Shown: piece after piece, positions 45,858 to 61,385 of the stretch
Layout of the letters: each line of letters starts with the position of its first letter
Numbering within the stretch: position 1 is the stretch's first letter
IMG/VR virus record: IMGVR_UViG_2706796476_000001
Coordinates: 87,418-151,417 of that record
DNA length: 64,000 bases
Source of the DNA: a virus
Taxonomy: Duplodnaviria; Caudoviricetes
Reading direction: 5' to 3' (one strand)
Position numbers and translations under genes: made by a program
The notes under the pieces: generated by a model
The model's database searches: none
Told to the model about the DNA's origin: nothing
Seen by the model: the letters and a program-made list of their open reading frames with translations, nothing else

Positions 45858-46550
45858 GTGGCAGACAAGTATAACAATTACGCAGAACTACGAGCGGCAG
45901 AACAAATCGGTAAGGACTACCACATCTTTTGTGACCTATTCAGCGATGAAATGATCTTGGTTGTCCCTCACGGCGGGGGTATTGAACCCGGTACGACGGA
46001 ACTATCACAAGAAGTAGATTTTCGTATTAAGGGCGGGCTTATTAGTTCTTACTCGTTCAATACAACCAAGTCTTCTAATAACCTTGACCTTCATATCACA
46101 AGCGCTAACTTTGATGAACCAATCGGGGTAGGGGCGGTCACGAACCATAAGCACGCTATCTCTTTCCACGGATACGCAGACAGCAAGAATGAAAACACAA
46201 TCGTTGGCGGGCTTGACGAGGAGTTCAAAGAGATTGTTATTAGACATCTTCAAGCACAGGGTTTTAATGCCGAGGCAGCTACAACTAGATTTACTGGTAC
46301 CGACCCTAATAACATTGTGAATCGTTGCGAGCATGGAGCGGGCGTGCAGCTCGAACTAAGTACATTGCAGCGTAAGAGATTTTTCTTTCATGATGACTGG
46401 TCTGCGGGTAACCGACATTACCGTACCAAGGTGCTAGAACGTTACGCTAGTGCAGTTGCGCTCGCTATCGAGGAGTATACGGATGGTCGGATTGTTACCG
46501 ATGAAGATAACCTTTATATCTCAATGCAGTCTCATAGTAACGATTTGTAA
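45858..46550 (+). CDS. pghP: Poly-gamma-glutamate hydrolase
   Basis: D.Y.NY.EL, PHGGGIEPGTTE, LHITS..FDEP, SFHG, G.DP.NIVN, GVQLELST motifs. Confidence 0.93.
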   Translation: MADKYNNYAELRAAEQIGKDYHIFCDLFSDEMILVVPHGGGIEPGTTELSQEVDFRIKGGLISSYSFNTTKSSNNLDLHITSANFDEPIGVGAVTNHKHAISFHGYADSKNENTIVGGLDEEFKEIVIRHLQAQGFNAEAATTRFTGTDPNNIVNRCEHGAGVQLELSTLQRKRFFFHDDWSAGNRHYRTKVLERYASAVALAIEEYTDGRIVTDEDNLYISMQSHSNDL

Positions 46551-46569
46551 AAATATGGTAATAGGTATT

Positions 46570-46599
46570 AAGCACTCAAATTTTTTTGGGTGCTTTTTT
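46570..46599 (+). terminator. Terminator after pghP
   Basis: AAGCACTCAAA...TTTGGGTGCTT followed by a T-tract. Confidence 0.75.
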
Positions 46600-46994
46600 C
46601 TGTTCTTTGATCTCATACATAAGGGCGTTATAAAAACTCTATATACACACGGGGAGGGGTGGCTAGTAGGGGGTATCCGAAGGGGTTATATAGGGGGTTT
46701 CTGAAGGGGAAAGATGGGGTAACGAATCGTGACGCCACAGGGGACTTGAAATTTGTTTCTGAAGCGGTAAGGGTTTGTTTTCTTTGGGTCGTCGTCGGTG
46801 GGGGAAGTAGTGAGGGAGATTCACGTTTAAGATACTATATATTTTACCTTTAAAATTTTTTTGGAAAATTTCTACCCGGGGTAGAGGGTATCACATAGGG
46901 TACCTACGCTTTATGAGAAAAAAACATACGGGGTGGGGTAGATGTCGGAATAGTCAGACAATTAACACCATAAAGAAAGAGGACATTAGCCCTC

Positions 46995-47339
46995 TTATTC
47001 CGGTAGGTACTCGCCGCCGTAGAAATAGCAATCTTCTTCCGGCTCTTCTCCCCACTTCTCGTCGTATTGATCGTCTAGTCTATACCCTCTCTCAGATACG
47101 TATATGAATGCGTCGTCCCCTTCATTGAATGCATATGATGCGATGTATTGTTTTTTAATCAAGCTGCTTAATACTCCTCTAATCTGTCTTACTGGAATGC
47201 TTGTTCCTTCTGCGATGTCTTCCGCTTCTAGGTTAGAATAGTGCTTCTCGTACATGCCTTCTGTAAGTAGCCAATTCATTACTTTACCTTCCATGACTGT
47301 CATCTTACCTGCCGCCTGTAGTTCGTTGATCTTTTTCAT
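46995..47339 (-). CDS. Winged-helix DNA-binding protein
   Basis: EDIAEGTSIPVRQIRGVLSSLIKKQYI. Confidence 0.75.
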   Translation of the reverse strand: MKKINELQAAGKMTVMEGKVMNWLLTEGMYEKHYSNLEAEDIAEGTSIPVRQIRGVLSSLIKKQYIASYAFNEGDDAFIYVSERGYRLDDQYDEKWGEEPEEDCYFYGGEYLPE

Positions 47340-47428
47340 TTCATCCGCTCCCTGTATGTAATGTTTTATTTCTAACTTTAGTATATCATGAGGGTTGACT
47401 TTGTGTCAACCCTTTTAGTGAAAAAAGT

Positions 47429-47647
47429 TTAGTTTAATTCTTTTAGTTGGCGTTCCACCTCATCAAGGTCTTCCTGTGCTTCATGGGCACAATCCATAAG
47501 CCCTTCACGGTTGAACTCGTATTCCTCACCATCCGGCATACGGTCCACGTCTTCCCACAACTGTTCAATCATTTCTTCTAGTTCCGTTTTCTGCTTAAGT
47601 AATTCCTCTTTTTTCTTCTTAAGTAATTCCTCTTTAGTGAATGTCAT
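47429..47647 (-). CDS. Small acidic coiled-coil early protein
   Basis: Own cassette promoter and RBS. Confidence 0.8.
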   Translation of the reverse strand: MTFTKEELLKKKKEELLKQKTELEEMIEQLWEDVDRMPDGEEYEFNREGLMDCAHEAQEDLDEVERQLKELN

Positions 47648-47737
47648 ATTAACCCGCTCCCCTTATGTAATGTTTTATTTCTAACTTTAGTATATCATGA
47701 GGGCTGACACTATGTCAACCCTTTTAGTGAAAAGTTT

Positions 47738-47986
47738 TTAAAGTGTGAAAGCCGTGTTGAAATTTTCAATTTGAATCATGCCGCCGTTATTGAATATCTG
47801 CATATCAGCGACAATATCCCCTATGATGTGAGAAAGATCGAACTGAATCATGACATCGTCGTATAACTCACTGTTTCGCTTGTTCTTCCATACAGGTAAA
47901 TAGTTGATAGTGCTACTCCTCATATACCGCTTTACATTCTCCCTGTCTGTATACCCTAATACCGTTTGACTAGTCATTGTGTACAA
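47738..47986 (-). CDS. Early hypothetical protein
   Basis: Overlaps the upstream gene. Confidence 0.7.
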   Translation of the reverse strand: MYTMTSQTVLGYTDRENVKRYMRSSTINYLPVWKNKRNSELYDDVMIQFDLSHIIGDIVADMQIFNNGGMIQIENFNTAFTL

Positions 47987-48260
47987 CCCCTATCCAGCTT
48001 TCCATATACTCGTGTACCTCATGTTCATCGTCTGTACGAATCGCAATGAGTTCACATGTCCAAGATGTCACAGGTTTAGCATGAATGATTAAATAGTCAG
48101 TGGTTATCGTCTCCCCTGCAATAGTAAGACCGTAAGCGTCAAATATCACGTAGCTATCTTGGACAACTCCCTCATACTCATAGAAGTCATACCCACCCTG
48201 CACCGCTTGATTAATCACGTCTAATAATTCCTCTTTGTTAATAACTGTTTCTTTTCTCAT
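47970..48260 (-). CDS. Early acidic hypothetical protein
   Basis: Cassette promoter and RBS. Confidence 0.8.
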   Translation of the reverse strand: MRKETVINKEELLDVINQAVQGGYDFYEYEGVVQDSYVIFDAYGLTIAGETITTDYLIIHAKPVTSWTCELIAIRTDDEHEVHEYMESWIGVVHND

Positions 48261-48347
48261 GTCATCCGCTCCTTTATGTATTGCTTTATTTCTAACTTTA
48301 GTATAACATGAGGGCTGACACTATGTCAACCCCTTTAGTGAAAAAGA

Positions 48348-48776
48348 TTATAAACCTTTGATCAGGTCATAAAGCTCATCAGACATAGCGGCAACTACCA
48401 CAGGATATATAGACTCTGCAAACTCATGGTTTCTAGCCCTCACAATCAGCTCGGCAATGTCTGAAAGGTTCATATCAAGTTCTAAATGAGGGTAAGAGCG
48501 GCTGAACGTTTCAAGGTCTCTTGAATATTTGTAACAGATAAGAAACTCATCTTCTACATCGTATGCATCGCTTTGTGTTAGTAAAACGGCGCTATACGGA
48601 TCATCCCTAAATTCCTTATTGAAAAACTCCTCTGTGTTACCGTGTACAGTAAACCCAAATAGCTCACTACAGTCCGTGTTCAGTCCTTCTAATATCTCTG
48701 CTAGTTCTCCAATGTTATTGATCAAGTAGTCCTGTACCGCTTCTAGACGCTCTTCTCTGTTTTCCATTCTATTCAT
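48348..48776 (-). CDS. Early acidic protein, YL..N family
   Basis: VQDYLINN...NTEEFFN..F...PY. Confidence 0.8.
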   Translation of the reverse strand: MNRMENREERLEAVQDYLINNIGELAEILEGLNTDCSELFGFTVHGNTEEFFNKEFRDDPYSAVLLTQSDAYDVEDEFLICYKYSRDLETFSRSYPHLELDMNLSDIAELIVRARNHEFAESIYPVVVAAMSDELYDLIKGL

Positions 48777-48784
48777 CCCCCTTG

Positions 48785-49036
48785 TTAGTTTAGTTCGTCA
48801 ATCATAGCCCAAAATGTTTCTACATGGTCTTGCATAGGGATATTATCTTGTCTGAGTGTGGATTCTCGTTCCATCATGAAACCGCCCATAAGTACCCACG
48901 CACGTTCAGCGGATAAGCTCATGATTCTTTCTCCCGTGCCCGCTGCGATCACTTCCCTATATCCGTCACCGTCACAGTATGCTTTATACAACAACCTGCC
49001 TAGTCTCTCTAATTCCTGTTCTGTTAAAATATCCAT
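48785..49036 (-). CDS. Early hypothetical protein
   Basis: Cassette promoter and RBS. Confidence 0.8.
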   Translation of the reverse strand: MDILTEQELERLGRLLYKAYCDGDGYREVIAAGTGERIMSLSAERAWVLMGGFMMERESTLRQDNIPMQDHVETFWAMIDELN

Positions 49037-49107
49037 ATGTAACCCCTCCTAATTGTTATTTCTAACTTTAGTATATCATGAGGGTTGATTTACTGTCAAC
49101 CCTTATT

Positions 49108-49229
49108 TAAAAATTCATCCTGTCTAATGACTCCCACGACACTAGACAGGATAGGACAGGCTCACGAAACCCGCCCACCTTCCGTAAAGAAGGTTCAAAT
49201 ATCACGGTATCACGTAAGTTTGTTGCATC
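49108..49229 (-). ncRNA. Candidate ~120-nt three-hairpin small RNA
   Basis: Own TTGACA-17-TATACT promoter (about 49234-49262); three hairpins then a U-tract; no RBS. Confidence 0.65.
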
Positions 49230-49277
49230 TTTAGTATACACTATAACAAATACCGTGTCAACATCTTTTTTTAAGAC

Positions 49278-49321
49278 ATATCGTGCATCGTATTAATAAA
49301 TATCGTGCATCGTATTAATAA
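49278..49321. repeat. 22-bp tandem duplication
   Basis: ATATCGTGCATCGTATTAATAA twice, spanning the stop of 49293..49664. Confidence 0.9.
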
Positions 49322-49664
49322 ATACCGCTCTGCTGTCTGCTCTGTTATCATACACCTCTGCTTCTAGTCCTATCTCATCCACAGGGTAGCATACAATAGC
49401 GTCTACCGCCAACTCTTCCGGTGTGTTGCTGATAGTGCCTAGAATATGTGTCATGTACACAGGATCAAGTTCGTTAATATCTATAATACCTTTAGCAACG
49501 ATGAAAGCAGGATGATCGTGTACAGTCATATCCAACCACGTCACCGTCTTTACCTTCCCGTTAGGCATATCTTTAGTAGTCGTATAAACTTCTGCCCCGT
49601 TCTGCCCTACCCTAAAATGAAACCATGCGCCACCATCATCCGGTAGTCTTTTAACCTCTGCCAT
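49293..49664 (-). CDS. Early hypothetical protein, related to the N-terminal part of 58477..59118
   Basis: Cassette promoter; D(D/H)GG...R start and (V/I)DA(I/V)..(Y/W).(P/S)V..(I/L)G. Confidence 0.8.
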   Translation of the reverse strand: MAEVKRLPDDGGAWFHFRVGQNGAEVYTTTKDMPNGKVKTVTWLDMTVHDHPAFIVAKGIIDINELDPVYMTHILGTISNTPEELAVDAIVCYPVDEIGLEAEVYDNRADSRAVFINTMHDIY

Positions 49665-50088
49665 ATGTATCAGCTCCTTTTCTAACTTTAGTATATCACG
49701 AGGGTTGATTTAATGTCAACCCTTTTAGTGAATGTTTGAATTGTTTGACAACTATTACGATAGTTTTCAGAATATTTAGACTTATACCATTGATATTTGT
49801 TATAATTTACGATTGTTTGTGGTACGATGCGTATAGAACCCCGTATTTGCCCCTTTATAGCTCCGTAGAGCGGTTTTATATGCCGAGTAGACCAATTACA
49901 CTAGATAACCCTTAAAAATCCGCCCTGCGCCGTCCTGTCCATCTAGATGCGAGTGACAAAGTCTAGCTTACGGCTCCTAGGAGATCGACGCCCCGGGCTT
50001 TGAAAGTTTTTCGTTTTTTATTCGTTTGTCTGTTTGAAAGTTTTTTATATCTCTCTATACGTCCTGTATATTTTTCTCGTACTTATGT

Positions 50089-50301
50089 TCATGCTTCTTC
50101 TTTTGTTCCATGATGAATAAATATATAAGTATCGTCGTACTCTCCTTCACCTTCTAACCTGTATGGCGTATATCCTAAAGTATCAATGGCGTTATCGAAA
50201 ATTGAAACACTGTCAATGGTTCCTTCATTATCAAACGGCTCAAAGCCTAGTTCAATCTGTAGTTGTTCCATTTCATGTTCAAGTAGAATTAATTTTTTCA
50301 T
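50089..50301 (-). CDS. Early acidic hypothetical protein
   Basis: Cassette promoter and RBS. Confidence 0.8.
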   Translation of the reverse strand: MKKLILLEHEMEQLQIELGFEPFDNEGTIDSVSIFDNAIDTLGYTPYRLEGEGEYDDTYIFIHHGTKEEA

Positions 50302-50417
50302 GCTTACCCACTCCTTTATTTTATGTATTGCTATATTTCTAACTTTAGTATATCATGAGGGTTGATTTGTTGTCAACCCTTATTTTTATCTTTCTTCCGG
50401 TTAGTTAGTACACACGC

Positions 50418-50627
50418 CTATTTCAGATACGCAATGTACCATACACCCTCTTGTACTTGTTGTTGTCGTACTGTAATTGGTTCTGAACAATGGTAAAACG
50501 AATACCAATTGTTTAAAACACATCTTACGTGTACACCATTGTTTGCCCACATCTTTAAAGCCTTCCATAAGGGAACTTCTATCCAGTCTAAACCTTCACC
50601 GTACCACTTTTCTTTGTTAGCTTCCAT
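50418..50627 (-). CDS. Early Trp-rich hypothetical protein
   Basis: Cassette promoter and RBS. Confidence 0.8.
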   Translation of the reverse strand: MEANKEKWYGEGLDWIEVPLWKALKMWANNGVHVRCVLNNWYSFYHCSEPITVRQQQVQEGVWYIAYLK

Positions 50628-50731
50628 AGGTTCCTCCCTCCTCCCCTTTGCTAATTTATGTATTGTTATATTTCTAACTTTAGTATATCATAAGGGTTGA
50701 TTTGTTGTCAACCCTTATGTTTATCTTTTTT

Positions 50732-51118
50732 TTACGGTCGTGAGTACTTCTGTAGTAGTGTAACGTCTTTTGTGAAATACAAACATGTTAGTTCGTGAGT
50801 CATAAAGGTTTCAGTAATGTTTGTTATGTTCTCTCTTATGGTGTCAATGTATTCTTGTTTGGTTACTGAATGGATTTCGTTGTCTTCTAGGTAGAAGTAA
50901 GGGTGATCAATATTGTATACTCCTTTACTGATAGCCTGTGCCAATTCATAAGGTTTATTAAACATTGCGTTTACGGTGTCTTGTATGTTTCTATATACAT
51001 GAAACTCTTCTAGTGTACGGTCATAGTGGTATAGGCTGTCTATAGTGTCTATTGTTAAATCTAGGTTGGATAACACGTATTCTTTTATATCGTTAAACTC
51101 TTGTTTTCTTGTTGACAT
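50732..51118 (-). CDS. Early protein, YL..N family
   Basis: IKEYVLSNL...YHYD.TL...YRN...F.KPYE. Confidence 0.8.
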   Translation of the reverse strand: MSTRKQEFNDIKEYVLSNLDLTIDTIDSLYHYDRTLEEFHVYRNIQDTVNAMFNKPYELAQAISKGVYNIDHPYFYLEDNEIHSVTKQEYIDTIRENITNITETFMTHELTCLYFTKDVTLLQKYSRP

Positions 51119-51177
51119 TGGTTGGTTCCTCCTTCTTGGAAAGTGCTTCGCTGCGTGACATCTTTACATTTTACACT

Positions 51178-51399
51178 TTATCCTTGCAGGAAACAAGCAT
51201 ATATGTTGTCTTTTGTGTCTTCTAATATGCCTAGTCTCTCTATGGTCAGTGTATTATTGATTGTTCCGTCTCCATAATTTGAGTCATATTCTTTTATTGC
51301 GTCTATTTCTTGTTGTGTAAGGTACACGGTCTTCCCTGTCGTTAGTTTTGCGTATATGAAAGCCAGTTCACCCATAGCGGTTCCCTCCTCTGCACTCAA
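51178..51399 (-). CDS. Early hypothetical protein
   Basis: RBS GAGGAGG precedes the internal ATG (MGELAF), the likelier start. Confidence 0.7.
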   Translation of the reverse strand: MSAEEGTAMGELAFIYAKLTTGKTVYLTQQEIDAIKEYDSNYGDGTINNTLTIERLGILEDTKDNIYACFLQG

Positions 51400-51402
51400 T
51401 TC

Positions 51403-51819
51403 CTACCTGCTCCCTTGCTCCTGCTCATATTTCTTTCTGTTGTCGATAAAGCTTTTCAGTTCGTCAGTGAAATTAAATTCTAATTCGTCTGAATAGCTCA
51501 CTAGTGTAAGGGCAATATCTGTGATATTATTTTGAATGGCTAATTCTTGGTTACGGGCTGATGTGGACCAAATTTGATTCCCGTTGAAGAAGAAGTAAGG
51601 CAGGTGCCGATCGTATTTACCGCTTTTAGTAGCGTTAAGTGCTTCACTTGGTGTAGCGAATAAGCCGTCTATGATTTCGTTTGTGTTTCGGTAGGCTTGC
51701 ACGTCCTGTAATGAGTAGTCATAGTGGTATACCACGTCTATATAGTCCATCGTCTCTTCTAGGTTGCTTAACAGGTATCTTTCAATAGCTTCCCTTGCTT
51801 TTATTCTTTCATCCATCAT
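51403..51819 (-). CDS. Early protein, YL..N family
   Basis: IERYLLSNL...YHYDYSL...YRN...FATPSE. Confidence 0.8.
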   Translation of the reverse strand: MMDERIKAREAIERYLLSNLEETMDYIDVVYHYDYSLQDVQAYRNTNEIIDGLFATPSEALNATKSGKYDRHLPYFFFNGNQIWSTSARNQELAIQNNITDIALTLVSYSDELEFNFTDELKSFIDNRKKYEQEQGSR

Positions 51820-51884
51820 TTGTGGTTCCTCCTCTATTTTGTGTTAACATACTATTTATTTACCTATGGTGTGGTGTGGTTTGT

Positions 51885-52322
51885 TTAGTTTCGTCTTCTA
51901 GGGAATGCGTCGGATAGTTGGTCTATTAGCTCGGCAATATCCGGTTTAAAGTTAAAGTCTATTTTGTCTACACTGTGAAGAATCAGTACAACAATGTCTA
52001 GCATGTCAGATTCTAGCAGGTATGGTATCTTTCCAAGGTCAAACGACGTTACGTCTCCATTTCTATGATACATGACATAGTCATCATAATCATACTGGCT
52101 ATGATCTATGGCTTGAATGGCTTCGTAAGGTGTTGTAAAGGTTGAGTTAAAGAAAGTTGCGTCGTTACAGTGTACCGTGTATTCTACTTCGTCTTTCAGT
52201 TGGTCATTGATCTCATACATGTGGTCGAATGCTTCGTCAATGTTCTTTAGAAATAGGCTAGCGATCTGATACATGATCTCTCTGTCTGTTTCTGTGTAGT
52301 GTCTTCCATTTGATTGAATCAT
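51885..52322 (-). CDS. Early protein, YL..N family
   Basis: LFLKNI...NDATFFNSTFTTPYEA. Confidence 0.8.
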   Translation of the reverse strand: MIQSNGRHYTETDREIMYQIASLFLKNIDEAFDHMYEINDQLKDEVEYTVHCNDATFFNSTFTTPYEAIQAIDHSQYDYDDYVMYHRNGDVTSFDLGKIPYLLESDMLDIVVLILHSVDKIDFNFKPDIAELIDQLSDAFPRRRN

Positions 52323-52325
52323 TTG

Positions 52326-52496
52326 TCATTTCCCCTTTGTATTATATTGGATTGTTCTTTCTTGTAGGTTCACAATGGCAATGCGTCCTATACTATCCCA
52401 GTAGGTATATGTATTGTCGTTGTTAGCGTATTGGAATTTGTAGTCATCTTCTTTTAACTGGTTCATGAGTTGGTTGACCGTTCTGAACTTCTCCAT
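52326..52496 (-). CDS. Small early protein (56 aa, not in the ORF track)
   Basis: Cassette promoter, RBS GAGGTG; MEKFRTVNQLMNQLKEDDYKFQY... Confidence 0.75.
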   Translation of the reverse strand: MEKFRTVNQLMNQLKEDDYKFQYANNDNTYTYWDSIGRIAIVNLQERTIQYNTKGK

Positions 52497-52598
52497 GTGT
52501 GTCACCTCTCTATGCTTTTAGTGTAACATGAGGGCTGACATTGTGTCAACCCTTTTCTTTTGTTAAAAGACAATGATTTGTTTCTATTCTTCCATTTA

Positions 52599-52784
52599 TT
52601 AATCAATATGAATAATATCGTATTGTTTATCAGCAGCTAGAGAATCGACATAATCGCTTGCATCTTTTTCGGTTGGGAAAATTCTTTCTAAATATTCTAC
52701 ACGTTCACCCTCTTCTCTATCCCATACATTAACTTCCCAATCGTTATCATACTCTGAAAATTGAATTTGGACATTTAATAACAT
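52599..52784 (-). CDS. Small acidic early protein
   Basis: Cassette promoter and RBS. Confidence 0.8.
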   Translation of the reverse strand: MLLNVQIQFSEYDNDWEVNVWDREEGERVEYLERIFPTEKDASDYVDSLAADKQYDIIHID

Positions 52785-52867
52785 ACGTAAAACCTCCTTT
52801 AGTTGGTAACTTTAGTGTAACATAAGGGCTGACTTACTGTCAACCCTTTATGAAAAGAAAGTTTTTT

Positions 52868-53116
52868 TTAACCTCTGATAATTTGTATACAATCGTCAGA
52901 CAGGTCAACAATCATAAGGTAAAGTTCTTGACTTAATGACTCGATGTATGTCGTCTCGTTCGCCCTAACGATAGTTTGAGCAATGTCTGAAATGCTCACA
53001 TTATGATCAGCAGATTTTTTCAGTTCCGCTAGGATAGCTATTGTTTCTTTTGGGTTCTCCTGTAAGTAAACCTTAATGGGTTCAAGTTGCTGTAGTACAT
53101 GCTCTCTGTAATTCAT
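52868..53116 (-). CDS. Early protein, internally shortened YL..N family member
   Basis: IKVYLQEN...ISDIAQTIVRA...LSQELY. Confidence 0.75.
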   Translation of the reverse strand: MNYREHVLQQLEPIKVYLQENPKETIAILAELKKSADHNVSISDIAQTIVRANETTYIESLSQELYLMIVDLSDDCIQIIRG

Positions 53117-53232
53117 ATGTATTACCTCCTTTAGTTGGTAACTTTAGTGTAACATAAGGGCTGACTTACTGTCAACCCGTTGTGAAAAGAAAGTTTTTTT
53201 TATTTTGTAGCGTTCCTAACAACGGTCAAACA

Positions 53233-53445
53233 TTAGTCCTCCCATTCCATGTCATCAAAGTCAGTGACAAGGAATCTAGATACTTTGTTTTGTATTTCAT
53301 GGCTTCTTTGTGCTTTACCCTGTTGCATTCCTACTAAAAAGGCTTCGTGAATCATGTCATTCATAATGTCCACCTGTTTAGAAATACCCTCTTCAATGAT
53401 TCTTCTTGATGCTATCCGCTGTAGTTCATTAATTTTGTTTAGCAT
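53233..53445 (-). CDS. Early hypothetical protein
   Basis: Overlaps the upstream gene. Confidence 0.7.
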   Translation of the reverse strand: MLNKINELQRIASRRIIEEGISKQVDIMNDMIHEAFLVGMQQGKAQRSHEIQNKVSRFLVTDFDDMEWED

Positions 53446-53759
53446 TTCCCTTTCCCCCTCACATTCATAATACCCGCACTGGCTTTCTTGTCATTACCTG
53501 TTAACCAACATTCGGCGCCTTCTTGATAGTAAACTCCCCAATACTTATCTTTCCCTTCATCATTGTAAACAATCCAGTGATCATGTAATATGTGAAGGTC
53601 TTCGCTTTTCCCTTTGTAGGGCTGTAAATAGTCTCCTACGATGTCATATACCTGTGAAAGTAAACTTTGATACGGAACGTCACGATTTTCAATAATTCCG
53701 GTCAATGCGTGCCCTTTGTGTTCTAGTTCTAACTTGTGGTTATACTCAGTTCTTAACAT
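53439..53759 (-). CDS. Early hypothetical protein
   Basis: Cassette promoter and RBS. Confidence 0.8.
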   Translation of the reverse strand: MLRTEYNHKLELEHKGHALTGIIENRDVPYQSLLSQVYDIVGDYLQPYKGKSEDLHILHDHWIVYNDEGKDKYWGVYYQEGAECWLTGNDKKASAGIMNVRGKGKC

Positions 53760-53837
53760 ATGTATTACCTCCTTTAGATGGTAACTTTAGTGTAACATGA
53801 GGGCTGACATACTGTCAACCCCTTTAGTGAAAAAACT

Positions 53838-54080
53838 TTAGATGAAATCGTTTTGGCTAATTCCGTTGTACTGCATGTCGTTCATGTTTCCCCGTGCCCG
53901 TGCTTCTTCTAACTGGCTTTCTAGGTCTTCTAGAATGTCTTCTAGTTCTTCGATATCACCGTTGATGTCGTCTAGCTCTTCGTTTGTAGCTTCTTCAAGA
54001 TCAGCATATAGCCTTTCAAGTTCGTCTTCTAGGTCGTCAATTCTTTTTTGTAGCTCATCAACTCGTGTACTGTTAGGCAT
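53838..54080 (-). CDS. Highly acidic coiled-coil early protein
   Basis: D/E-rich heptads; cassette promoter. Confidence 0.8.
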   Translation of the reverse strand: MPNSTRVDELQKRIDDLEDELERLYADLEEATNEELDDINGDIEELEDILEDLESQLEEARARGNMNDMQYNGISQNDFI

Positions 54081-54160
54081 GTGTAAAAACCTCCTTCATC
54101 TGATAAACCTAGTGTAACATGAGGGCTGACATAGTGTCAACCCCTTTTAACACATTTTTT

Positions 54161-54571
54161 TTATTCTTCGTCCTCTTCGTCTTCGATTTGCTCAATAATA
54201 GAAACCAGTTCATCAGATACGTCGATATTGTCGATATTTCTAATTACAGCGTCTGCAATATCTTCGATATCGTCTTTCATTTCTTTAATGATTGTATACT
54301 CATTAGCGGTCTCAAGGTTACCGTATGCATTAAACCGTACATAGTCATCACCGTAGTTAAAGTCACCAAAACAAACTGCCCTTACTACTTCATCTGTTTT
54401 ACCTTCAAAGAACATATTAAAAAATTCTTCGTCGTTCACATACCAGTCATAGTGGTCTAGCTCACCATTCCATGAAATAACTTCACGAACCGCCGCTTGT
54501 AACTCCTCTTCATTTTCTAGTAAATACGCTTTTACCTCTTCAAGTACTTTTTTCTCTGTCATATTAAACAC
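54161..54571 (-). CDS. Highly acidic early protein, YL..N family
   Basis: VKAYLLEN...NDEEFFNMFF...DDYVRFNAYGNLET. Confidence 0.8.
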   Translation of the reverse strand: MFNMTEKKVLEEVKAYLLENEEELQAAVREVISWNGELDHYDWYVNDEEFFNMFFEGKTDEVVRAVCFGDFNYGDDYVRFNAYGNLETANEYTIIKEMKDDIEDIADAVIRNIDNIDVSDELVSIIEQIEDEEDEE

Positions 54572-54806
54572 GTCCTTTCGAGTAGTTGCCCGCCGTTTGT
54601 TCGGCTTTCCATAGAATATGTTGTGCCTGTTTCAAGTCTTCCAGTGCGCCGCCTGTGTAGATGTCTTTTTGTAACTCCCTTTGAATAGTTACAAGAAGAT
54701 CAACTTTGTTATCCCACCATGCGCCGTGTTCTAGTTCGTTTTCGATTCGTGCCGCTGCGACTGCTAAATCTTGTGCTTCTCTTAAAAGATCGTTTACTGT
54801 TATCAT
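54564..54806 (-). CDS. Early hypothetical protein
   Basis: Cassette promoter and RBS. Confidence 0.8.
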   Translation of the reverse strand: MITVNDLLREAQDLAVAAARIENELEHGAWWDNKVDLLVTIQRELQKDIYTGGALEDLKQAQHILWKAEQTAGNYSKGRV

Positions 54807-54882
54807 GTGTTTTATACCTCCTGTATTGTTTGTAACTTTAGTGTATCATAGGGTTGATTAGCCGTCAACCCTTATTTGAAAA

Positions 54883-55104
54883 TTAATTGTCAAAATCGTA
54901 AGTTGTTACGTTCTGTTCTAAAGCCCATGCGCCTGCATCTTCTATATACTGGATAAAATCCGTCAAACGGTCGGTGTTCATCTGCGCGTCAGAAAGTAAT
55001 CCGTATAAAGAGCCTTCAAACGTCCCCTGACGAATTTCATATGTCCGCTTGACTCCATAACTTACAGTGTTGATAAGTACAAAATCTTTTGTCACTATGA
55101 CCAA
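54883..55104 (-). CDS. Early hypothetical protein
   Basis: Cassette promoter and RBS. Confidence 0.75.
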   Translation of the reverse strand: MVIVTKDFVLINTVSYGVKRTYEIRQGTFEGSLYGLLSDAQMNTDRLTDFIQYIEDAGAWALEQNVTTYDFDN

Positions 55105-55182
55105 CTCCCTTTAGTTTATGTAGTTCGGTGTAACTGTCTTTCTAGTTCTAGTGTATCGCAGGGTTGATATAATGTCAACCCT

Positions 55183-55743
55183 TTATTTAATGAAACTTAA
55201 AACTTTTTTATGAAGTTTGAAACTTTCCATGTTTACCGTGTAGTCATCAAAAAGTAACATGTAGTTGTCAATATAGTGGTGAACAAAATGGTCAAATTGA
55301 TTGTTTTCGTCATGGCAAAAGTTTATATCTTGTTGGAACCGTACCGAAACGGCGTTTGCGGCTTCTTGACAGGCGTTGAATGCGGCACGCTGATAGAAAG
55401 TATTATCCGGCTCATCTGATAGCTTACAAAGGCTCTCACGCATCATATTCATATGGTACTGTGCGTCATCGGTAAGTAAAGCAGGAATTGAAGAATCCAT
55501 GTCCGAGAAGCCCATATAAAATTCTTTTAAGAAGTCTTTATGAACACGGATGAAGCCGCCAACGTCTCCTAATCTGTAATAATCGACATACTCGCAAAGG
55601 AATGACATTTTTTCTGCCACATAATGCCGTTCAGTTTTCAAAAGGTCTTCCGATACGTTGTATCTTAATTTTGGGTTGTTACTCCATACTTGGCGTAATT
55701 CATATGTATTTAGTTCACGTAAATTCTTTTCCATTGTAGTCAC
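55183..55743 (-). CDS. Early protein, paralog of 56307..56873
   Basis: EL...EL..VW.NNPKLR. Confidence 0.8.
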   Translation of the reverse strand: MTTMEKNLRELNTYELRQVWSNNPKLRYNVSEDLLKTERHYVAEKMSFLCEYVDYYRLGDVGGFIRVHKDFLKEFYMGFSDMDSSIPALLTDDAQYHMNMMRESLCKLSDEPDNTFYQRAAFNACQEAANAVSVRFQQDINFCHDENNQFDHFVHHYIDNYMLLFDDYTVNMESFKLHKKVLSFIK

Positions 55744-55795
55744 TCCTATTTGTTGGTATCTTTAGTATAGCAAAGGGTTGATATAATGTCAACCC

Positions 55796-56092
55796 TTATT
55801 TATGAAAATTTTCTGCTACCGCTGCGTGAAGATAAACGGCTTTTTGTACGTTATAAGGTAAGTCACCCCATTCTATCTCTTTCCCTATATCTTCGTGTAG
55901 TTCCTCATCATCGTATAAAGGGATATCATCAGAAAACGACCATACACCCTCAAAAGGGTTTGCACTACATGCTACGGTGTATACCGTTCCCTCCTCCATG
56001 TCAATAAGCTGAACTGAATACCGGTCAAGCGTACGCCCTTCGTTGTCATATGCTTTAAGAAAACCTTCCGGTTCAATACTATAGTTAGTCAT
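55796..56092 (-). CDS. Early hypothetical protein
   Basis: YDNEGRTLDRYSV; IGKEIEWGDLP..VQ. Confidence 0.8.
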   Translation of the reverse strand: MTNYSIEPEGFLKAYDNEGRTLDRYSVQLIDMEEGTVYTVACSANPFEGVWSFSDDIPLYDDEELHEDIGKEIEWGDLPYNVQKAVYLHAAVAENFHK

Positions 56093-56104
56093 GCCTATTC
56101 CTCC

Positions 56105-56230
56105 TTACAAGAATTTTTTATGTAGTGCCGCAAACTGCTTATCTAGTTGGGCAACCATTTCATTTTCAGCCTTAAGGCGCTTCTCAATTCGCTTTCTATT
56201 TGCTAGTGTGTCCATTAACGCTTTCCACAT
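56105..56230 (-). CDS. Small early protein (41 aa, not in the ORF track)
   Basis: Cassette promoter, RBS AAGGAG; MWKALMDTLANRKRIEKRLKAE... Confidence 0.7.
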   Translation of the reverse strand: MWKALMDTLANRKRIEKRLKAENEMVAQLDKQFAALHKKFL

Positions 56231-56306
56231 GTCACCCAACTCCTTTTCTTGATAACTCAATGATATCAAAGGGTTGATATAATGTCAACCCTTATTTAAA
56301 CTTTTT

Positions 56307-56873
56307 TTAAAAACTTTCTGTAACTGTTTTGAATAGCTTATAGTCGTTTTCCGGTTCTACATAGTACTCATCATCCAAACGGTTATCCACATAAAACTCT
56401 AGAAAGTAGTCAAATGCGTTTTCATCTGTGTAACAGGATTCCACTGCATCTTTCATATTGTTTGCTAACAGTTGGGCAATGCTATCACAGACGTTTTCAA
56501 ACTTCTCGTACAGCTCATCGCATTCCTCATCAGTATCAGCGTTTAAGTAAGCTTCCTGCGCTTGCTTCATACTGTCTAATGCTTTTCTGTCTTCTTCTTC
56601 CGTTGTAAATAAACCCATGTCTTTAGAAAGTTTTTCCGCACCTTCCAGGAACCCTTGATAATCGTCAATAGTCATATAAACGTGTGAGAACCCGCCAATG
56701 CTCCAATTAGATAAGTACGATTTTACATAGTGGAGACGATCACCCACCCAATACATTTCACCTTCTGCGGCATCTTCTTGCACCTGTTGGCGCAATTTCG
56801 GGTTGTTCTCCCAAACCTTTTTCAGCTCATCCTGTGTTAGTTCTTCGATTAGTTTCTTTTCCATTCTTACCAA
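56307..56873 (-). CDS. Early acidic protein, paralog of 55183..55743
   Basis: EELTQDELKKVWENNPKLR. Confidence 0.8.
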   Translation of the reverse strand: MVRMEKKLIEELTQDELKKVWENNPKLRQQVQEDAAEGEMYWVGDRLHYVKSYLSNWSIGGFSHVYMTIDDYQGFLEGAEKLSKDMGLFTTEEEDRKALDSMKQAQEAYLNADTDEECDELYEKFENVCDSIAQLLANNMKDAVESCYTDENAFDYFLEFYVDNRLDDEYYVEPENDYKLFKTVTESF

Positions 56874-56965
56874 CTCCTTTAAGTTTATGTATTACGTGTT
56901 CCTGTCTTGCTTAACTTAATGATATCAAAGGGTTGATATAATGTCAACCCTTATTTAAACTTTTT

Positions 56966-57214
56966 TTAAACCCGTGTATAAAAATCATTGTACGCCGTTT
57001 CTTTAATGCTTGTAAATAACCCTTCCGATAAAACATGGATGCTTGCATCATATACCCACACCGCAAATTCTGCGTGTTTAGCGTGCTTTGCCAGTACTAC
57101 TTGAAGATGATCACAAGCCTTATTATACAGCGATAAAGGACGGTTCGTAACAAGCTCAAACCCTTTTGATTCTACGGATTCTGTGATTAATTGACCTAGT
57201 AAAAAATCTGTCAT
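56966..57214 (-). CDS. Early hypothetical protein
   Basis: RBS AGGAGGG. Confidence 0.75.
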   Translation of the reverse strand: MTDFLLGQLITESVESKGFELVTNRPLSLYNKACDHLQVVLAKHAKHAEFAVWVYDASIHVLSEGLFTSIKETAYNDFYTRV

Positions 57215-57234
57215 CGTTTCCCCTCCTAGACAGG

Positions 57235-57387
57235 TTACATAGTGTTAGATGCTATGATCACAGAAAGGAGAAGAATAAATACGAATCCCGTTAATAGGTA
57301 AGTTCCATAAAATAAGACTGCCGAGTCTTTTTCTAGTTCTTCTGCTTGAAAGAAATACAGATTGATTTTTCTAATAATGTTTTTCAT
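57235..57387 (-). CDS. Small membrane protein (50 aa, not in the ORF track)
   Basis: RBS AGGAGGG; MKNIIRKINLYFF... with a C-terminal TM helix. Confidence 0.7.
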   Translation of the reverse strand: MKNIIRKINLYFFQAEELEKDSAVLFYGTYLLTGFVFILLLSVIIASNTM

Positions 57388-57410
57388 TCGTTTTCCCTCC
57401 TGTAATTACA

Positions 57411-57662
57411 TCATAGGATATAACAAGCATACCTGTCAATAATGTTTGTGTCAATGGGTTTTTCGTTGATAACTTCACCACGGGGAACCCACGATAAAAC
57501 ACCCGTGTTAAAATAAGTTTCAGCATGGTTAAAACTGTTCCGCAAACTTAAAACAAGTTCAGACGCCTGTCCGTGGCTCTCTAATGTGAGGAAAACGTCT
57601 TTACCCTTGTAACGAAACTTTACAGAATACATAAGATCAGCCCCGTATATAAAGAGTATCAT
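57411..57662 (-). CDS. Early hypothetical protein (start likely the downstream ATG, MYSVKF)
   Basis: The cassette promoter overlaps the track's start. Confidence 0.7.
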   Translation of the reverse strand: MILFIYGADLMYSVKFRYKGKDVFLTLESHGQASELVLSLRNSFNHAETYFNTGVLSWVPRGEVINEKPIDTNIIDRYACYIL

Positions 57663-57697
57663 AAGGGTTGATATAATGTCAACCCTTATTTTATTGT

Positions 57698-58210
57698 TTA
57701 TGCGTTTTGTTCTTCTTGATCTGTGTTGTTCTCGATGATCTCTAATACCTTGGCGTCAAACTGCTCAAATGTGTTGTTGTGGTCTACATCGGTACATAGT
57801 TCCTCAAGGTTAATAGCAATATTGTCATAAACCTCTCCTGCCACGTTTTTATCTTTTAAAGATTCGTTAACCTGTGCAACTGCTCGATTGTACATAATGT
57901 CATCGAGGTTTTTGTACAGCGATTCGGTGTAATACTGGTAATAGCCGCCCGCAAAAAGGTTAGTAAGGCTGAAATTGTTTGTATCAAGACCCGTCTGAAA
58001 TACAAATTCTTTGATATAATATTCGATGTCTTCCGCATTCTTCCATAACTCATAATTATAGATTGGAGTAAATGTATCGGCTACCTCCATAATAGCGTCA
58101 CAAATGTACATGCTTCCGTCATAATCTCTTTCTAGTGATTTCAGTGCGTCTGCCTCATCTTCTAAAATGTCAATTAGTTCATACTCTCTAATTTCTAACA
58201 TGTAAAACAT
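57698..58210 (-). CDS. Ocr-like acidic DNA-mimic (putative anti-restriction) protein
   Basis: ICDAIMEVADTFTPIYNYELW aligns with the recalled T7 Ocr segment [21 protein letters not shown]; very acidic. Confidence 0.65.
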   Translation of the reverse strand: MFYMLEIREYELIDILEDEADALKSLERDYDGSMYICDAIMEVADTFTPIYNYELWKNAEDIEYYIKEFVFQTGLDTNNFSLTNLFAGGYYQYYTESLYKNLDDIMYNRAVAQVNESLKDKNVAGEVYDNIAINLEELCTDVDHNNTFEQFDAKVLEIIENNTDQEEQNA

Positions 58211-58273
58211 CTCCTTTAAGTTTGTTATGTTTTTAGTATATTGCAGGGTTGATGTAATGTCAACCCTTTTTTT

Positions 58274-58396
58274 TTATTTCTTGCTGCTGCTATTTCCTGC
58301 ACACTGGGCACATTTATTTCTATCATGTGATTCCCCTACCAAGTAAGCAACATTACATGTTTCGCATAGGTCTACCCGATAATCAGCAAGTTTCAT
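58274..58396 (-). CDS. Small zinc-finger-like early protein (40 aa, not in the ORF track)
   Basis: Cassette promoter, RBS GGGAGG; CETC...CAQC. Confidence 0.7.
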   Translation of the reverse strand: MKLADYRVDLCETCNVAYLVGESHDRNKCAQCAGNSSSKK

Positions 58397-58476
58397 ATGT
58401 AACAACCTCCCTTATTTGATAAACCTAGTGTAACATGAGGGCTGACATAGTGTCAACCCCTTTTGTGAAAAAAGTT

Positions 58477-59118
58477 TTAAAGATTTAAATTAACAAGTTC
58501 ACGGGCTTTACCTTTTAAAGAAACAAAGGTACCTTCGTCAGTAACAGTCAACTTTACATGCCCTTTGTCTGATAGGTTGACGAAACAATCAATCGCACCT
58601 ACGACGTATAGTCCTAAATCGTCTATGATGTCTTTAGTAGACACGCCGCTTTCTGTTCCTTTAGCAAATGCCGATACGGTTTCATTATCTGCGATATAGG
58701 TTAGAATACGTCCTTCCGTCGAGGACACATCAAGTACCCTTACATCTTCACAAATGCGCCATACTGATAATTCGGTCAAAACTTCCCACCATGAATCGCA
58801 AATCGTTTGAGTACCGCCCAAACTTTCTACACTCCAATACTGGACGGCGTCAATGATAAAATGCTCAACATCTTCTAGGGCTTCATCTAGGCTCTCAAAC
58901 CCTCCGTATGATGCTACGTCTTCCGGATGTGCGATGTCCTCTAATGAGACAGTTAATTCACTTAATAGGTAGAAAGTAGGTTCATCTCCTGTAGTGGGTT
59001 GTACTTCTACATAGACGTATTCTCCTTCGTTGTCTTCGTCCTCTCTAATGAAAATGCCCCCGTGATCTTTCCAGTCGATGTCACCATAATTAGTCCAATG
59101 TTTTTCCATTTTCTCCAA
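58477..59118 (-). CDS. Early acidic protein with a C-terminal winged-helix-like segment
   Basis: NYGDIDWKDHGGIFI; C-terminal STKDIIDDLG...L.DKGHV. Confidence 0.8.
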   Translation of the reverse strand: MEKMEKHWTNYGDIDWKDHGGIFIREDEDNEGEYVYVEVQPTTGDEPTFYLLSELTVSLEDIAHPEDVASYGGFESLDEALEDVEHFIIDAVQYWSVESLGGTQTICDSWWEVLTELSVWRICEDVRVLDVSSTEGRILTYIADNETVSAFAKGTESGVSTKDIIDDLGLYVVGAIDCFVNLSDKGHVKLTVTDEGTFVSLKGKARELVNLNL

Positions 59119-59195
59119 CTCCTTTAGGTTTATGTAATGCGTGTTCCTGTCTTGCTTAACTTAATGATATCAAAGGGTTGATATAATGTCAACCC

Positions 59196-59570
59196 TTATT
59201 TATAAAAAATTCTCTTATCCTTTAAAATGACTGTATTTGCGGTGCTGATGGGTTGATGTGTTTCCTTATCGATGAAACTGTTAAACTTGTAAGGGTTGTA
59301 TGTGGCTTCCCTGTACGTTTCATCTATATGCGCCTTTACGTCCTGTGTGAGCGTTCCAATTACATACGCATGAACATTCTTACGATTTTCTTTTAAAACC
59401 TTGTCACGCCCCTTTTGATTGACTTTAAAGGTGACATCGGAAAGAATAACTATAGAAGAGTGACACACGACCTTTTCGTTTTGCTTGACACTGAATACCT
59501 TCTTATGTAGGTTAAAATAAACTTTCGATACTGCACCGGTCTTCACTTCTCTATCTTGGTACGTTTGCAT
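59196..59570 (-). CDS. Conserved phage protein (VYFNLHK family)
   Basis: VYFNLHKKVFSV...FKVNQKGRDKVLKENRKNVHAYVIG...YNPYK..SF. Confidence 0.8.
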   Translation of the reverse strand: MQTYQDREVKTGAVSKVYFNLHKKVFSVKQNEKVVCHSSIVILSDVTFKVNQKGRDKVLKENRKNVHAYVIGTLTQDVKAHIDETYREATYNPYKFNSFIDKETHQPISTANTVILKDKRIFYK

Positions 59571-59696
59571 TGGTTAGCCCTCCTTTTGTCTTCTCCTCTA
59601 TAGTACGCCGGTATTGATTAAATGTCAACCCTAAAATAAAAAAAAAATGAGCAGCACGGATTTTTTTTTCTACCATGCTGCCCGGGTTAAACGGAA

Positions 59697-59813
59697 TCTG
59701 TGTAGGGAGCTACTAAGGAAATTCCTATTCTGTGTAGGGAGCTACTAAGGAAATTCCTATTCTGTGTAGGGAGCTACTAAGGAAATTCCTATTCTGTGTA
59801 GGGAGCTACTAAG
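59697..59813. repeat. 32-bp tandem repeat, about 3.7 copies
   Basis: TCTGTGTAGGGAGCTACTAAGGAAATTCCTAT three times plus 21 bp; the core recurs near 60074 and 61620. Confidence 0.97.
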
Positions 59814-60037
59814 AGTTCAGGAACCTCTACAACAGGGTAAACCCAAAGACTGTTTAACTCCTCGGGACTGTTTGTCCCTCCCCAAAAACTACATCCGGAA
59901 CCTACTATGAAACAGTCACAAGCTCCATTATTTCTTTTATACTCGCTCTTGAGAGCTAGAGTGTCATTATACATGAAAAGACTACCCGGAGACAGCTCCT
60001 CTATTTGTACTCGTTTAATCTCTGCCATCAGCTTCAC
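59789..60037 (-). CDS. Hypothetical protein
   Basis: RBS GAGGAGGTG; ends inside the repeat. Confidence 0.75.
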   Translation of the reverse strand: MKLMAEIKRVQIEELSPGSLFMYNDTLALKSEYKRNNGACDCFIVGSGCSFWGGTNSPEELNSLWVYPVVEVPELLVAPYTE

Positions 60038-60087
60038 GTAGTCTCACCTCCTCTCTATACCTCGACTAAATTTTGTGCAGGGAGCTA

Positions 60088-60486
60088 CTAAGCGTTTGGC
60101 AGCTGCTCCATAACTCGGCTAACCCACTCCCGAAGGTACTTCTCCTCCGGTAGGTCTTCTTCGTAGAAGGACTCCTCGAGTCCCATCCATCCGTACGGAG
60201 GATCAGTGTCGATCCACACTCCTGTTAGAGTATCATATATTTGAATGTGGTCAGCGTTGTGAAGTCGACGCCTTTCAGCGTCCCAGTCAGAACTGTACTT
60301 ACTACCTGCTTCGCCGGGTACTTCTGAGAATGCTGAGATGTTGAAGTCCATTAAGAGGAACTTTTCCGTCTCTTGCTTAGTTTTAAAGACTCTGCTTATA
60401 TCTCGAAGCCCTCCCCCGGGGTAGTAGTCGTAGAAGTTGAACAGCTGGTATCGACCTGTAGGAACAGTATATACCTTCACAGTCAT
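60088..60486 (-). CDS. Hypothetical protein
   Basis: YDYYPGGGLRD motif; RBS. Confidence 0.8.
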   Translation of the reverse strand: MTVKVYTVPTGRYQLFNFYDYYPGGGLRDISRVFKTKQETEKFLLMDFNISAFSEVPGEAGSKYSSDWDAERRRLHNADHIQIYDTLTGVWIDTDPPYGWMGLEESFYEEDLPEEKYLREWVSRVMEQLPNA

Positions 60487-60890
60487 TCTCCCTCCTTGAT
60501 ATACTTACTCGCCATAAGCTCTTCTACATACTTGTCTAGTAGTGTTTCAATGGACATCCCATCGTTTAAAAACTTCTCGGCAAGGTCTCTCTTAATGTTT
60601 TCCACCGGACGACGTACTTCATAGTCTTGTGTAGTAATCAAAGCGAGGACTTCCGGTAACGAGAGGCTGAATAGATTACCGTACCAACGAACAAGTTGTT
60701 CCCTAAAAGATGACTCGAATGCCGGAGTAACTCGAATAACGGTATCTCTTTCTTCTTCTACAATTTTATGATTCTTTATAACGGTCTCTAATAGTTCAGG
60801 TACGGTAAGGCTTTCTCTCTCCCGAATATACTTTACTAATTCTACATGTACCTCGTGTGTGACAATTAAAGTCTGTTTTGTTTTTTCCAT
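60483..60890 (-). CDS. Hypothetical protein
   Basis: RBS; ATGA coupling to the next gene. Confidence 0.8.
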   Translation of the reverse strand: MEKTKQTLIVTHEVHVELVKYIRERESLTVPELLETVIKNHKIVEEERDTVIRVTPAFESSFREQLVRWYGNLFSLSLPEVLALITTQDYEVRRPVENIKRDLAEKFLNDGMSIETLLDKYVEELMASKYIKEGE

Positions 60891-60905
60891 TGTAAAACTC
60901 CTCCT

Positions 60906-61385
60906 TTAATCCCAAACTTCTGTGACTAGGTCTTCTAAGGCTACTACAACAAAGCGCTTATCTTTTGCTGCAAGTACAGTTTCTTTGGTAGATTTGTATA
61001 GCGGGGAAATCATCACATGGCTTTTTTCCGTATCGTTAGCAGCTATAACTACAAAGTCTTGGTCATGAAGAACTCGGTGCCCTTGGGTATCATACACGTT
61101 TAGTTGCGCCGGATTAGCCTTTACTACTTTACCATAACTATCGTCATACTTCAGTTTCTTAAACCCTACAAGTCTAACCGAGTCCACATTGATCATGTCT
61201 TCTCTCTCGTCAACTGTAACTAACTGGTTGACGATGTCTTTAACTTTATACTTACTATGGTCTATACGGATAGTATCTCCTTCTTTTAACGGTAAGGGGG
61301 AGATTACCTCTTGGGCTACAAAGCCTTCCTCATACTCCATAGCTCTCACGTAGTACTTACATTCTCCATACAATCTCGTCATCAT
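60906..61385 (-). CDS. Hypothetical protein
   Basis: RBS AAAGGAGG. Confidence 0.8.
   Translation of the reverse strand: MMTRLYGECKYYVRAMEYEEGFVAQEVISPLPLKEGDTIRIDHSKYKVKDIVNQLVTVDEREDMINVDSVRLVGFKKLKYDDSYGKVVKANPAQLNVYDTQGHRVLHDQDFVVIAANDTEKSHVMISPLYKSTKETVLAAKDKRFVVVALEDLVTEVWD

Follow-up and report, generated by a model that had tools for sequence, protein, structure and literature searches.

Organization and genomic setting of the array

The DNA analysed was a stretch of 64 000 nucleotides (the window; positions 87 418 to 151 417 of IMG/VR virus record IMGVR_UViG_2706796476_000001), in part of which a long row of small genes is punctuated by a palindromic promoter repeat. A pattern search of the window for GGGTTGAC-N5-RTCARCCCT returned 21 minus-strand matches with zero mismatches, spanning 47391–59195; shuffled sequences yielded 0.02 matches on average and never more than 1. 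The identical 21 sites, and none elsewhere, were found in the whole 151 417 bp virus record. An earlier reading of the same sequence (the original prediction) had described an array of cassettes with 21 palindromic promoter repeats and one to five small genes behind each, and both statements agree with the search and with the cassette map, in which about 33 genes were counted and 100% of the array genes lie on the minus strand. The accompanying claim that the stop codon of the upstream gene often abuts the repeat was overstated: the gap was 0–1 nt in three of the 18 measurable cases and its median was about 15 nt.

The region matched the Agatevirus phages phiAGATE, Bobb and SDFMU_Pbc (83–85% identity over about one third of the length, in many pieces), and the source phage is an Agatevirus (Herelleviridae, Bastillevirinae), a Bacillus myophage. 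In these three relatives the counterpart of the array extends between about 12 kb and base 118, with transcription directed at the left genome end, and contains 20–24 copies of the same promoter unit per genome; in phiAGATE its last part lies inside the 2669 bp terminal repeat (1–2669). In a motif scan of IMG/VR, phiAGATE and Bobb were the only records with arrays, and the remaining hits were single sites. At window position 46878 the match to the left ends of these two records breaks off, which indicates that the record from which the window was taken is a permuted assembly and that the physical genome end, or the boundary of the terminal repeat, lies just downstream of the array.

Most of the unknown counter-defence genes of large virulent phages are found in their early host-takeover regions, and outside T4 and SPO1 the timing of these genes and the turnover of the regions are poorly understood. 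The array corresponds to the SPO1 host-takeover module (terminal redundancy, genes 37–60) and belongs to a known class of early region, which the framing of the original prediction had passed over. As in SPO1, small early genes are clustered at the end of the genome, within or beside the long terminal repeat as judged by alignment to the phiAGATE and Bobb records, and are placed singly or in small groups behind copies of one conserved strong sigma-A promoter. There are 14 such copies within 13 kb in SPO1; here, 21 full copies, one decayed copy and one core-only copy were found, with 9–11 of 12 consensus positions matched. The gp58 family is present in both modules and is the only gene family in common, zero other array genes having been matched to SPO1 families. 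Unlike the promoters of the array, the 14 SPO1 early promoters lack the palindrome core and have a conserved spacer of their own (TTGACT-ttcc-CTAC...GTG). These promoters are not described in the phiAGATE genome paper, and a literature search turned up no description of palindromic early promoters for Bastillevirinae. A dyad that is built into the -35 element, occurs 21-fold and has a plausible trans-acting regulator is an apparently undescribed feature of such an array.

Architecture of the repeat promoters

The repeat units were aligned with nhmmer over 57–68 nt per copy. Aligned on the motif, each unit starts with an A/T-rich tract and GGG-TTGACA, followed after five variable bases by RTCARCCC-T; a further four to six variable bases, usually ending in TG, lead to a -10 element, a conserved leader and a Shine–Dalgarno sequence. 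The -35 hexamer TTGACA lies inside the left arm of the palindrome, and the right arm occupies the first half of the spacer between the -35 and -10 elements. Spacers are 16–18 nt in length, the -10 element is TATACT, TACACT or TATCAT, and TG precedes it in most copies. A scan of the units against the sigma-A consensus gave 9–11 matches of 12. Both the alignment and the consensus scan reproduce the architecture that had been proposed (-35 in the left arm, TG-extended -10, leader with ribosome-binding site), and the local clustering of sub-variants that had been noted was also seen in the aligned copies. The consensus match, the position and the orientation make it very probable that every repeat acts as a strong sigma-A promoter, in line with the promoter role originally assigned to it. 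The right arm is missing from the sigma-A-like promoters in other parts of the genome. A divergent promoter on the plus strand was considered and rejected, with only weak matches (9 of 12) and zero plus-strand genes. An Rfam scan of 46500–62000 at E values of up to 1 gave nothing relevant.

Cassettes and their genes

The repeats, all on the minus strand, are numbered R1 to R21 from the highest coordinate downwards. R1 (59164–59195; ATCAACCC arm, -10 TATCAT) heads gene 58477–59109, R2 (58427–58459; GTCAGCCC arm, -10 TACACT) heads gene 58274–58396, a member of Pfam family PF25745 Phage_GP58 (the SPO1 gene 58 family; 9.3e-18), and R3 (58235–58266) heads gene 57698–58201, which is ocr-like (phrog_2568 at 1.7e-40) and for which tblastn returned 82 Bacillus phage records. 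R4 (57655–57685), with a spacer of 16 nt, precedes three genes (57411–57632, 57235–57387 and 56966–57214). The two copies of phrog_14286 in the array follow R5 (56919–56950; gene 56307–56864) and R7 (55764–55795; gene 55183–55734), separated by R6 (56260–56291) with genes 56105–56230 and 55796–56092. R8 (55150–55181) heads gene 54883–55095, R9 (54840–54871), the loop GGCTA of which is common to Bobb, heads genes 54564–54806 and 54161–54562, R10 (54111–54143) heads gene 53838–54080 and R11 (53789–53821) heads genes 53439–53759 and 53233–53445. R12 (53146–53178) and its near-duplicate R13 (52814–52846) are each followed by one gene (52868–53116 and 52599–52784, respectively).

The longest cassette lies behind R14 (52520–52552) and comprises five genes, from 52326–52496 to 50732–51118, three of which are phrog_4534 paralogs. 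R15 (50682–50714) heads gene 50418–50627, R16 (50347–50379) heads gene 50089–50301, which is followed by a noncoding gap of about 360 nt, and R17 (49690–49722) heads gene 49293–49664. The array continues with R18 (49070–49102; genes 48785–49036 and 48348–48767), R19 (48300–48332; genes 47970–48260 and 47738–47986) and R20 (47689–47721; gene 47429–47647), and ends with R21 (47380–47412), which has perfect 9 bp arms and heads the last gene (46995–47339), itself followed by a terminator-like site at 46977–46996. At the other end of the array, a 22nd copy, the right arm of which has decayed (ATCAATAC; about 59600–59631, minus strand), heads gene 59196–59570, which matches Mycobacterium phage L5 gp82 (Pfam Phage_L5_gp82); further upstream, an early promoter at 61669–61700 (minus strand) has the core palindrome only (TTGACAAATAGTCAA).

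The phrog_4534 family is represented by six or seven paralogs in the array, among them an 82-residue copy that matches the C-terminal part only. No functions for the phrog_4534 and phrog_14286 families were obtained from PHROGs, Pfam or the ESM Atlas, and no helix-turn-helix (HTH) domain was found by Pfam among the proteins of the array itself. Of the 33 array products (46995–59570), 21 have a pI below 5 and several contain 28–34% Asp plus Glu; this acidity, together with the multi-copy families, would fit proteins that resemble DNA mimics or decoys. The description of the cassettes as anti-defence genes could be followed for only one of the approximately 33 genes, the ocr-like one.

Conservation of the palindrome

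Conservation was measured on 89 copies of the repeat from four genomes (the window, phiAGATE, Bobb and SDFMU_Pbc), 67 of them from the three relatives. In these 89 copies a dyad lies over the core promoter with its half-sites at a fixed distance, the arm-to-arm spacing (N5) showing zero variation. The information content was 0.3–0.9 bits at the loop positions, 1.7–1.9 bits at the TCA of the right arm and 0.9–1.3 bits at the outer CCC, the inner TCA being the best-conserved part of the right arm. Within the window, 12 loop variants were counted versus four variants of the right arm, and the sequence after the arm varies as well. Among the copies from the three relatives the RTCA core was present in 58 of 67 and the exact RTCARCCC arm in 34 of 67; the left GGG persists in these copies even where the CCC has been lost.

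Related palindromes were found over the early promoters of other genera: TTGACT-TTA-AGTCAA or close variants in Goe3, TTGACA-N4-GTCAA in Shbh1 and an imperfect TTGACT-TTA-AGTAAA in Moonbeam and Bastille. On this distribution, the core predates the genus Agatevirus.

Two known classes of regulatory site were compared with the dyad and rejected. Promoters of the MerR family have spacers of 19–20 nt, rather than the optimal 16–18 nt found here, and MerR-type activation was set aside on these grounds. A Spo0A box was likewise set aside, with only four to five of seven positions matched.

A candidate regulator

In the window GTTGA-N7-TCAAC occurs 14 times, compared with 0.08 expected, and its only occurrence outside the array is at the promoter of an XRE-family gene. 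In a genome-wide search with TTGAC-N5-RTCAA the same promoter (24826–24857, plus strand) was the sole non-early promoter carrying the core, in the form GTGTTGAC-TTTTA-ATCAACA (24826–24845) over its -35 element. The gene (24891–25211, plus strand) is monocistronic, has its own terminator and encodes a protein of 106 residues with a match to HTH_3 (1.5e-11) that resembles ImmR and SinR. Homologs were found in all seven of the other Bastillevirinae genomes searched; none was found in SPO1. In 12 of 12 Bastillevirinae genomes, the window included, the XRE promoter carries that genome's own version of the motif, and the putative regulator thus has at its own promoter the dyad that is found in the array. 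The XRE protein is the best candidate for a self-regulated repressor of the array. A second XRE gene (76 residues, G000:7824–8051) is a poorer candidate, being absent from Shbh1 and Bastille, the promoters of which bear the motif.

The constraint on the right arm, the retention of the core in copies that lack the hairpin, the presence of the core in several genera and its occurrence at the XRE promoter together favour a reading at the level of DNA, in which the palindrome would be a protein operator more than an RNA hairpin or a mark of common ancestry alone. The operator role put forward in the original prediction is in keeping with the fixed spacing, with a core kept in the absence of the hairpin-forming CCC and with the same core at the XRE promoter, and it remains a predicted role.

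The arrangement has a parallel in the repression of anti-CRISPR promoters by Aca proteins (PMC6765145; PMC9410906), in which very strong early counter-defence promoters also carry inverted repeats over the core promoter and are bound by a self-regulating HTH protein, as is predicted here. The aca genes lie inside the operon that they control, whereas the candidate described here is 22 kb away and would govern more than 20 promoters; it has no sequence relationship to the Aca proteins.

The palindrome as a possible RNA hairpin

In Agatevirus the dyad is extended to 8–10 bp by the GGG and CCC, an extension that is typical of the genus and complete in this genome. Read on the sense strand, the stems have predicted energies of -10.6 to -14.9 kcal/mol with z-scores of -2.5 to -6.4, overlap the -35 element and end about 6 nt before the -10 element. 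Bacterial stem-loops the DNA of which doubles as a -35 element and ends just upstream of the -10 element have been reported (10.64898/2026.08.19.745784), and the same preprint notes that a palindrome of this kind can also serve as a transcription-factor site (LexA at yobI/ruvA). The palindrome might by analogy act mainly as RNA, as a promoter-coupled terminator or attenuator insulating the 21 units, the hairpin and the polymerase on the overlapping promoter together stopping or trimming transcripts that arrive from the upstream cassette. The geometry would place the 3' end about 10–12 nt upstream of the start, as in the preprint, and the stability of the sense stems speaks for this reading as well. 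The array has no other terminators: 11 terminator-like sites were counted in it compared with 9.7 expected, which is no enrichment, and those on the sense strand are mostly the palindromes themselves together with the site at the end of the array. The scarcity of terminators that had been remarked on earlier was thereby confirmed. Full arms are present in 21 of the 22 copies of this genome, and the frequent GTCAGCCC arm would still pair by G-U in the sense RNA.

Other properties of the repeats make a primarily RNA-level function rather unlikely. With three to five T in 8 nt, the tail that follows the stem on the sense strand falls short of a canonical U-tract. The hairpins do not differ in stability between the sense and antisense strands (mean energies of -12.5 and -12.1 kcal/mol, respectively), with no overall strand preference, the A/G variants favouring one strand each. 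The exact CCC arm is missing from 33 of the 67 copies of the relatives, not all of which could form a stable stem, but most of which keep the TCA core at its fixed spacing. The Goe3 dyad would give an A/U-rich stem of 5–6 bp, too weak for termination, and the loop length is invariant, which a hairpin does not require. The bacterial promoter-coupled terminators share with the repeats the stem-loop over the -35 element that ends before the -10 element; they differ in having a T-tract before the -10 element and mapped 3' ends, the tract being weak here, and in being scattered single sites in contrast to a 21-fold array of one sequence.

Read in the antisense direction (47380–59195, plus strand), several of the repeats score as terminators consisting of a hairpin and a T-run, because the upstream A-tract becomes a T-run on that strand. 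The repeats could in this orientation block transcription that enters the array from late genes in concatemers.

Recombination and proposed cassette exchange

Gene order is largely collinear in the four genomes, with many differences of a single cassette. At two repeats the flanking sequences could be assigned to different repeats of a relative. At R1 (junction E1, 59192) the upstream flank matches the Bobb repeat preceding an extra gene at 58 of 60 nt and the downstream flank matches the next Bobb repeat at 56 of 57 nt, the switch falling inside the shared core; the same pattern holds against SDFMU_Pbc and phiAGATE. At R8 (junction E6, 55178) the downstream flank matches the second Bobb repeat at 52 of 57 positions, and the upstream flank, for which the ungapped count is only 29 of 60 as a result of a 1 nt offset, follows the first Bobb repeat when shifted by eye. 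Both chimeras are consistent with a deletion that arose by crossing over between direct repeats. The loop ATTAT occurs in six of eight consecutive promoters of the window, the orthologous promoters of the three relatives differing from it, and intact right arms are more frequent in the window (21 of 22) than in the relatives (34 of 67; p = 1e-4).

The comparison of related genomes that had been proposed as a check of the exchange hypothesis was carried out on all ordered pairs of the four genomes, which are at about 85% identity and give the test low power. Adjacency was broken at 39 of 151 repeat-bearing junctions (26%) and at 12 of 60 repeat-less junctions (20%), which is not a significant enrichment (p = 0.48). 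A repeat lies on either side of at least five cassettes, and for several indels one of the two boundaries is a gene junction without a repeat. The proposal that the repeats are recombination points therefore holds in part: two clean chimeras and homogenized loops speak for it, but a role as preferred breakpoints is not supported by the four genomes. The absence of a visible integrase from the window, as originally stated, extends to the entire genome (151 kb, 98% complete), in which no match to Phage_integrase (PF00589) or Resolvase (PF00239) was found while the control genomes were positive.

A dedicated exchange system, integron-like or targeted by a helper protein, in which the palindrome is the recombination site and circles move between phages, would explain the two exact chimeras with their switch in the shared core, the several repeat-flanked single-gene cassettes that some of the four genomes have and others lack, and the one gene family that is found at different places in them, and mini-circles of promoter stem-loop elements (PeSLs) offer a precedent for excised cassettes (PMC2839356). 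Such a system is exceedingly unlikely. No tyrosine or serine recombinase domain is encoded anywhere in the genome, so that the IntI-type tyrosine recombinase that lies beside an integron array is lacking, and the cassettes are not promoterless units with attC sites: the palindrome is part of each cassette's own promoter. The statistics of the adjacency breaks and the indels bounded on one side by a repeat-less junction point the same way, and crossovers are expected from general homologous recombination between direct repeats of 60–100 bp. The description as an integron-like array was accordingly abandoned; the repeats are occasional substrates of general homologous recombination, not a dedicated cassette system.

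The comparison with the PeSLs of T4-type phages, in which a strong early promoter is combined with a terminating stem-loop (PMC2839356; PMC4122927), was apt. Both consist of a repeated strong early promoter with an A/T-rich upstream tract and a stem-loop, lie among small genes of unknown function and are accompanied by cassette indels between related phages; the junctions lie in the elements in the case of PeSLs, and here do so at the two clean chimeras. In PeSLs the stem-loop stands beside the promoter and has been shown to terminate, in contrast to a stem-loop over the -35 element that lacks a U-tract, and in the four genomes compared here the breakpoints are not enriched at the repeats. The four genomes set a limit on PeSL-type modular shuffling, in that crossovers at repeats occur but do not dominate gene turnover.

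The uniformity of the repeats could also be explained without any function of the palindrome, as that of a duplicated promoter unit kept uniform by gene conversion, with the arms reflecting concerted evolution and the constraint on the -35 element. The local clustering of sub-variants, the run of ATTAT loops that orthologous promoters do not share and the excess of intact right arms in the window over the relatives are all as expected from this explanation, and orthologous promoters of the relatives, if active as predicted, work with decayed arms. It is nevertheless very unlikely: conversion alone would homogenize the loops too, which is not what the 12 loop and four arm variants of the window show, the core has been kept across genera the proteins of which are only about 45–60% identical, and the same core stands at the unlinked XRE promoter 22 kb away.

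Proposed mechanism

With moderate confidence, the locus is interpreted as an early host-takeover block in which the palindrome serves as a common operator, for which the XRE protein is the best candidate ligand, and in which recombination is a by-product. On injection, host sigma-A RNA polymerase would fire from about 22–25 near-consensus promoters, each heading one to five small, mostly acidic genes, including one ocr-like anti-restriction gene and one gene of the SPO1 gp58 family. The core GTTGA-N7-TCAAC would most likely be the common operator for a dimeric DNA-binding regulator, through which all of the cassettes could be shut off or throttled together; with the same core at its promoter, the XRE gene would be autoregulated. 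The GGG/CCC extension would give a hairpin in read-through RNA, and damping of read-through between cassettes may be an added function of the palindrome, not its primary one. General homologous recombination would occasionally delete, insert or homogenize cassettes because units of 60–100 bp are repeated in direct orientation.

Several observations weigh against this interpretation. It draws on a small number of cross-genome comparisons that are not phylogenetically independent. At the XRE promoter of several genera the right half (AGACAA, AGGAAA, AGTAAA) does not form a true inverted copy, so that the element is perhaps not read as a dyad everywhere, and the XRE gene might be no more than a further early gene with a promoter of the early class. 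The XRE protein has homologs in Staphylococcus Kayvirus and in Listeria P100/A511-like phages as well (558 phage records, including those of Bacillus Herelleviridae), and the early promoters in the terminal repeat of one Kayvirus, phage 812, lack the palindrome except for one copy; the presence of an XRE homolog in phages without a general palindrome means that it does not predict the motif. From its distribution the XRE-type protein appears to be a widely conserved regulator of Herelleviridae, for which no previously assigned role was found. As regards the damping of read-through, termination may be weak or absent, given the noncanonical U-tract.

In a bolder form of the operator interpretation, one conserved, autoregulated XRE repressor of Bastillevirinae would turn off the whole takeover programme, and the Agatevirus dyad would serve in addition as an RNA hairpin and as a homology linker for cassette exchange. 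This combination is considered quite unlikely; if true, it would amount to a Gram-positive counterpart of the PeSLs, with promoter, operator, insulator and recombination linker in one element of 40 nt. As a regulon the array is clean and testable: a 23 bp dyad occurs 21 times, one candidate repressor can be named, and relatives provide natural variants from which the right arm has been lost. Should the dyad be an operator, it would provide a handle for switching early gene sets in Bacillus phages and a motif with which to search Bastillevirinae for early genes; should it also be a hairpin insulator, promoter–terminator coupling would extend to phage gene arrays.

Other features

In the left terminal repeat of Staphylococcus phage 812, one annotated early promoter (L091:6688–6723) carries GGGCTTGAC-TT-TCAAGCCC across its -35 element. 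It is the lone case there of a hairpin over the -35 element, the other ten annotated promoters of this terminal repeat having no palindrome.

Two noncoding features were observed inside the array. A nonpalindromic consensus promoter (TTGACA-17-TATACT) lies at 49233–49261 on the minus strand and is followed by about 125 nt without a ribosome-binding site; the predicted RNA (49105–49261) folds into four stems (-48.6 kcal/mol, z = -5.2), ends in a hairpin and a U-run, and had no match in Rfam. This segment is a candidate early small RNA. The gene-free gap of about 360 nt behind gene 50089–50301 (49735–50090) is 80–84% conserved with the three relatives, and its RNA is not more structured than that of shuffled sequences (z = 0.47).

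Tandem repeats were present in two genes of the array. A 24 nt unit is duplicated (two copies, 47587–47635) inside gene 47429–47647, and a 22 nt unit is repeated 2.5 times across the end of gene 49293–49664 (49271–49324). Both look like products of recent slippage or duplication.

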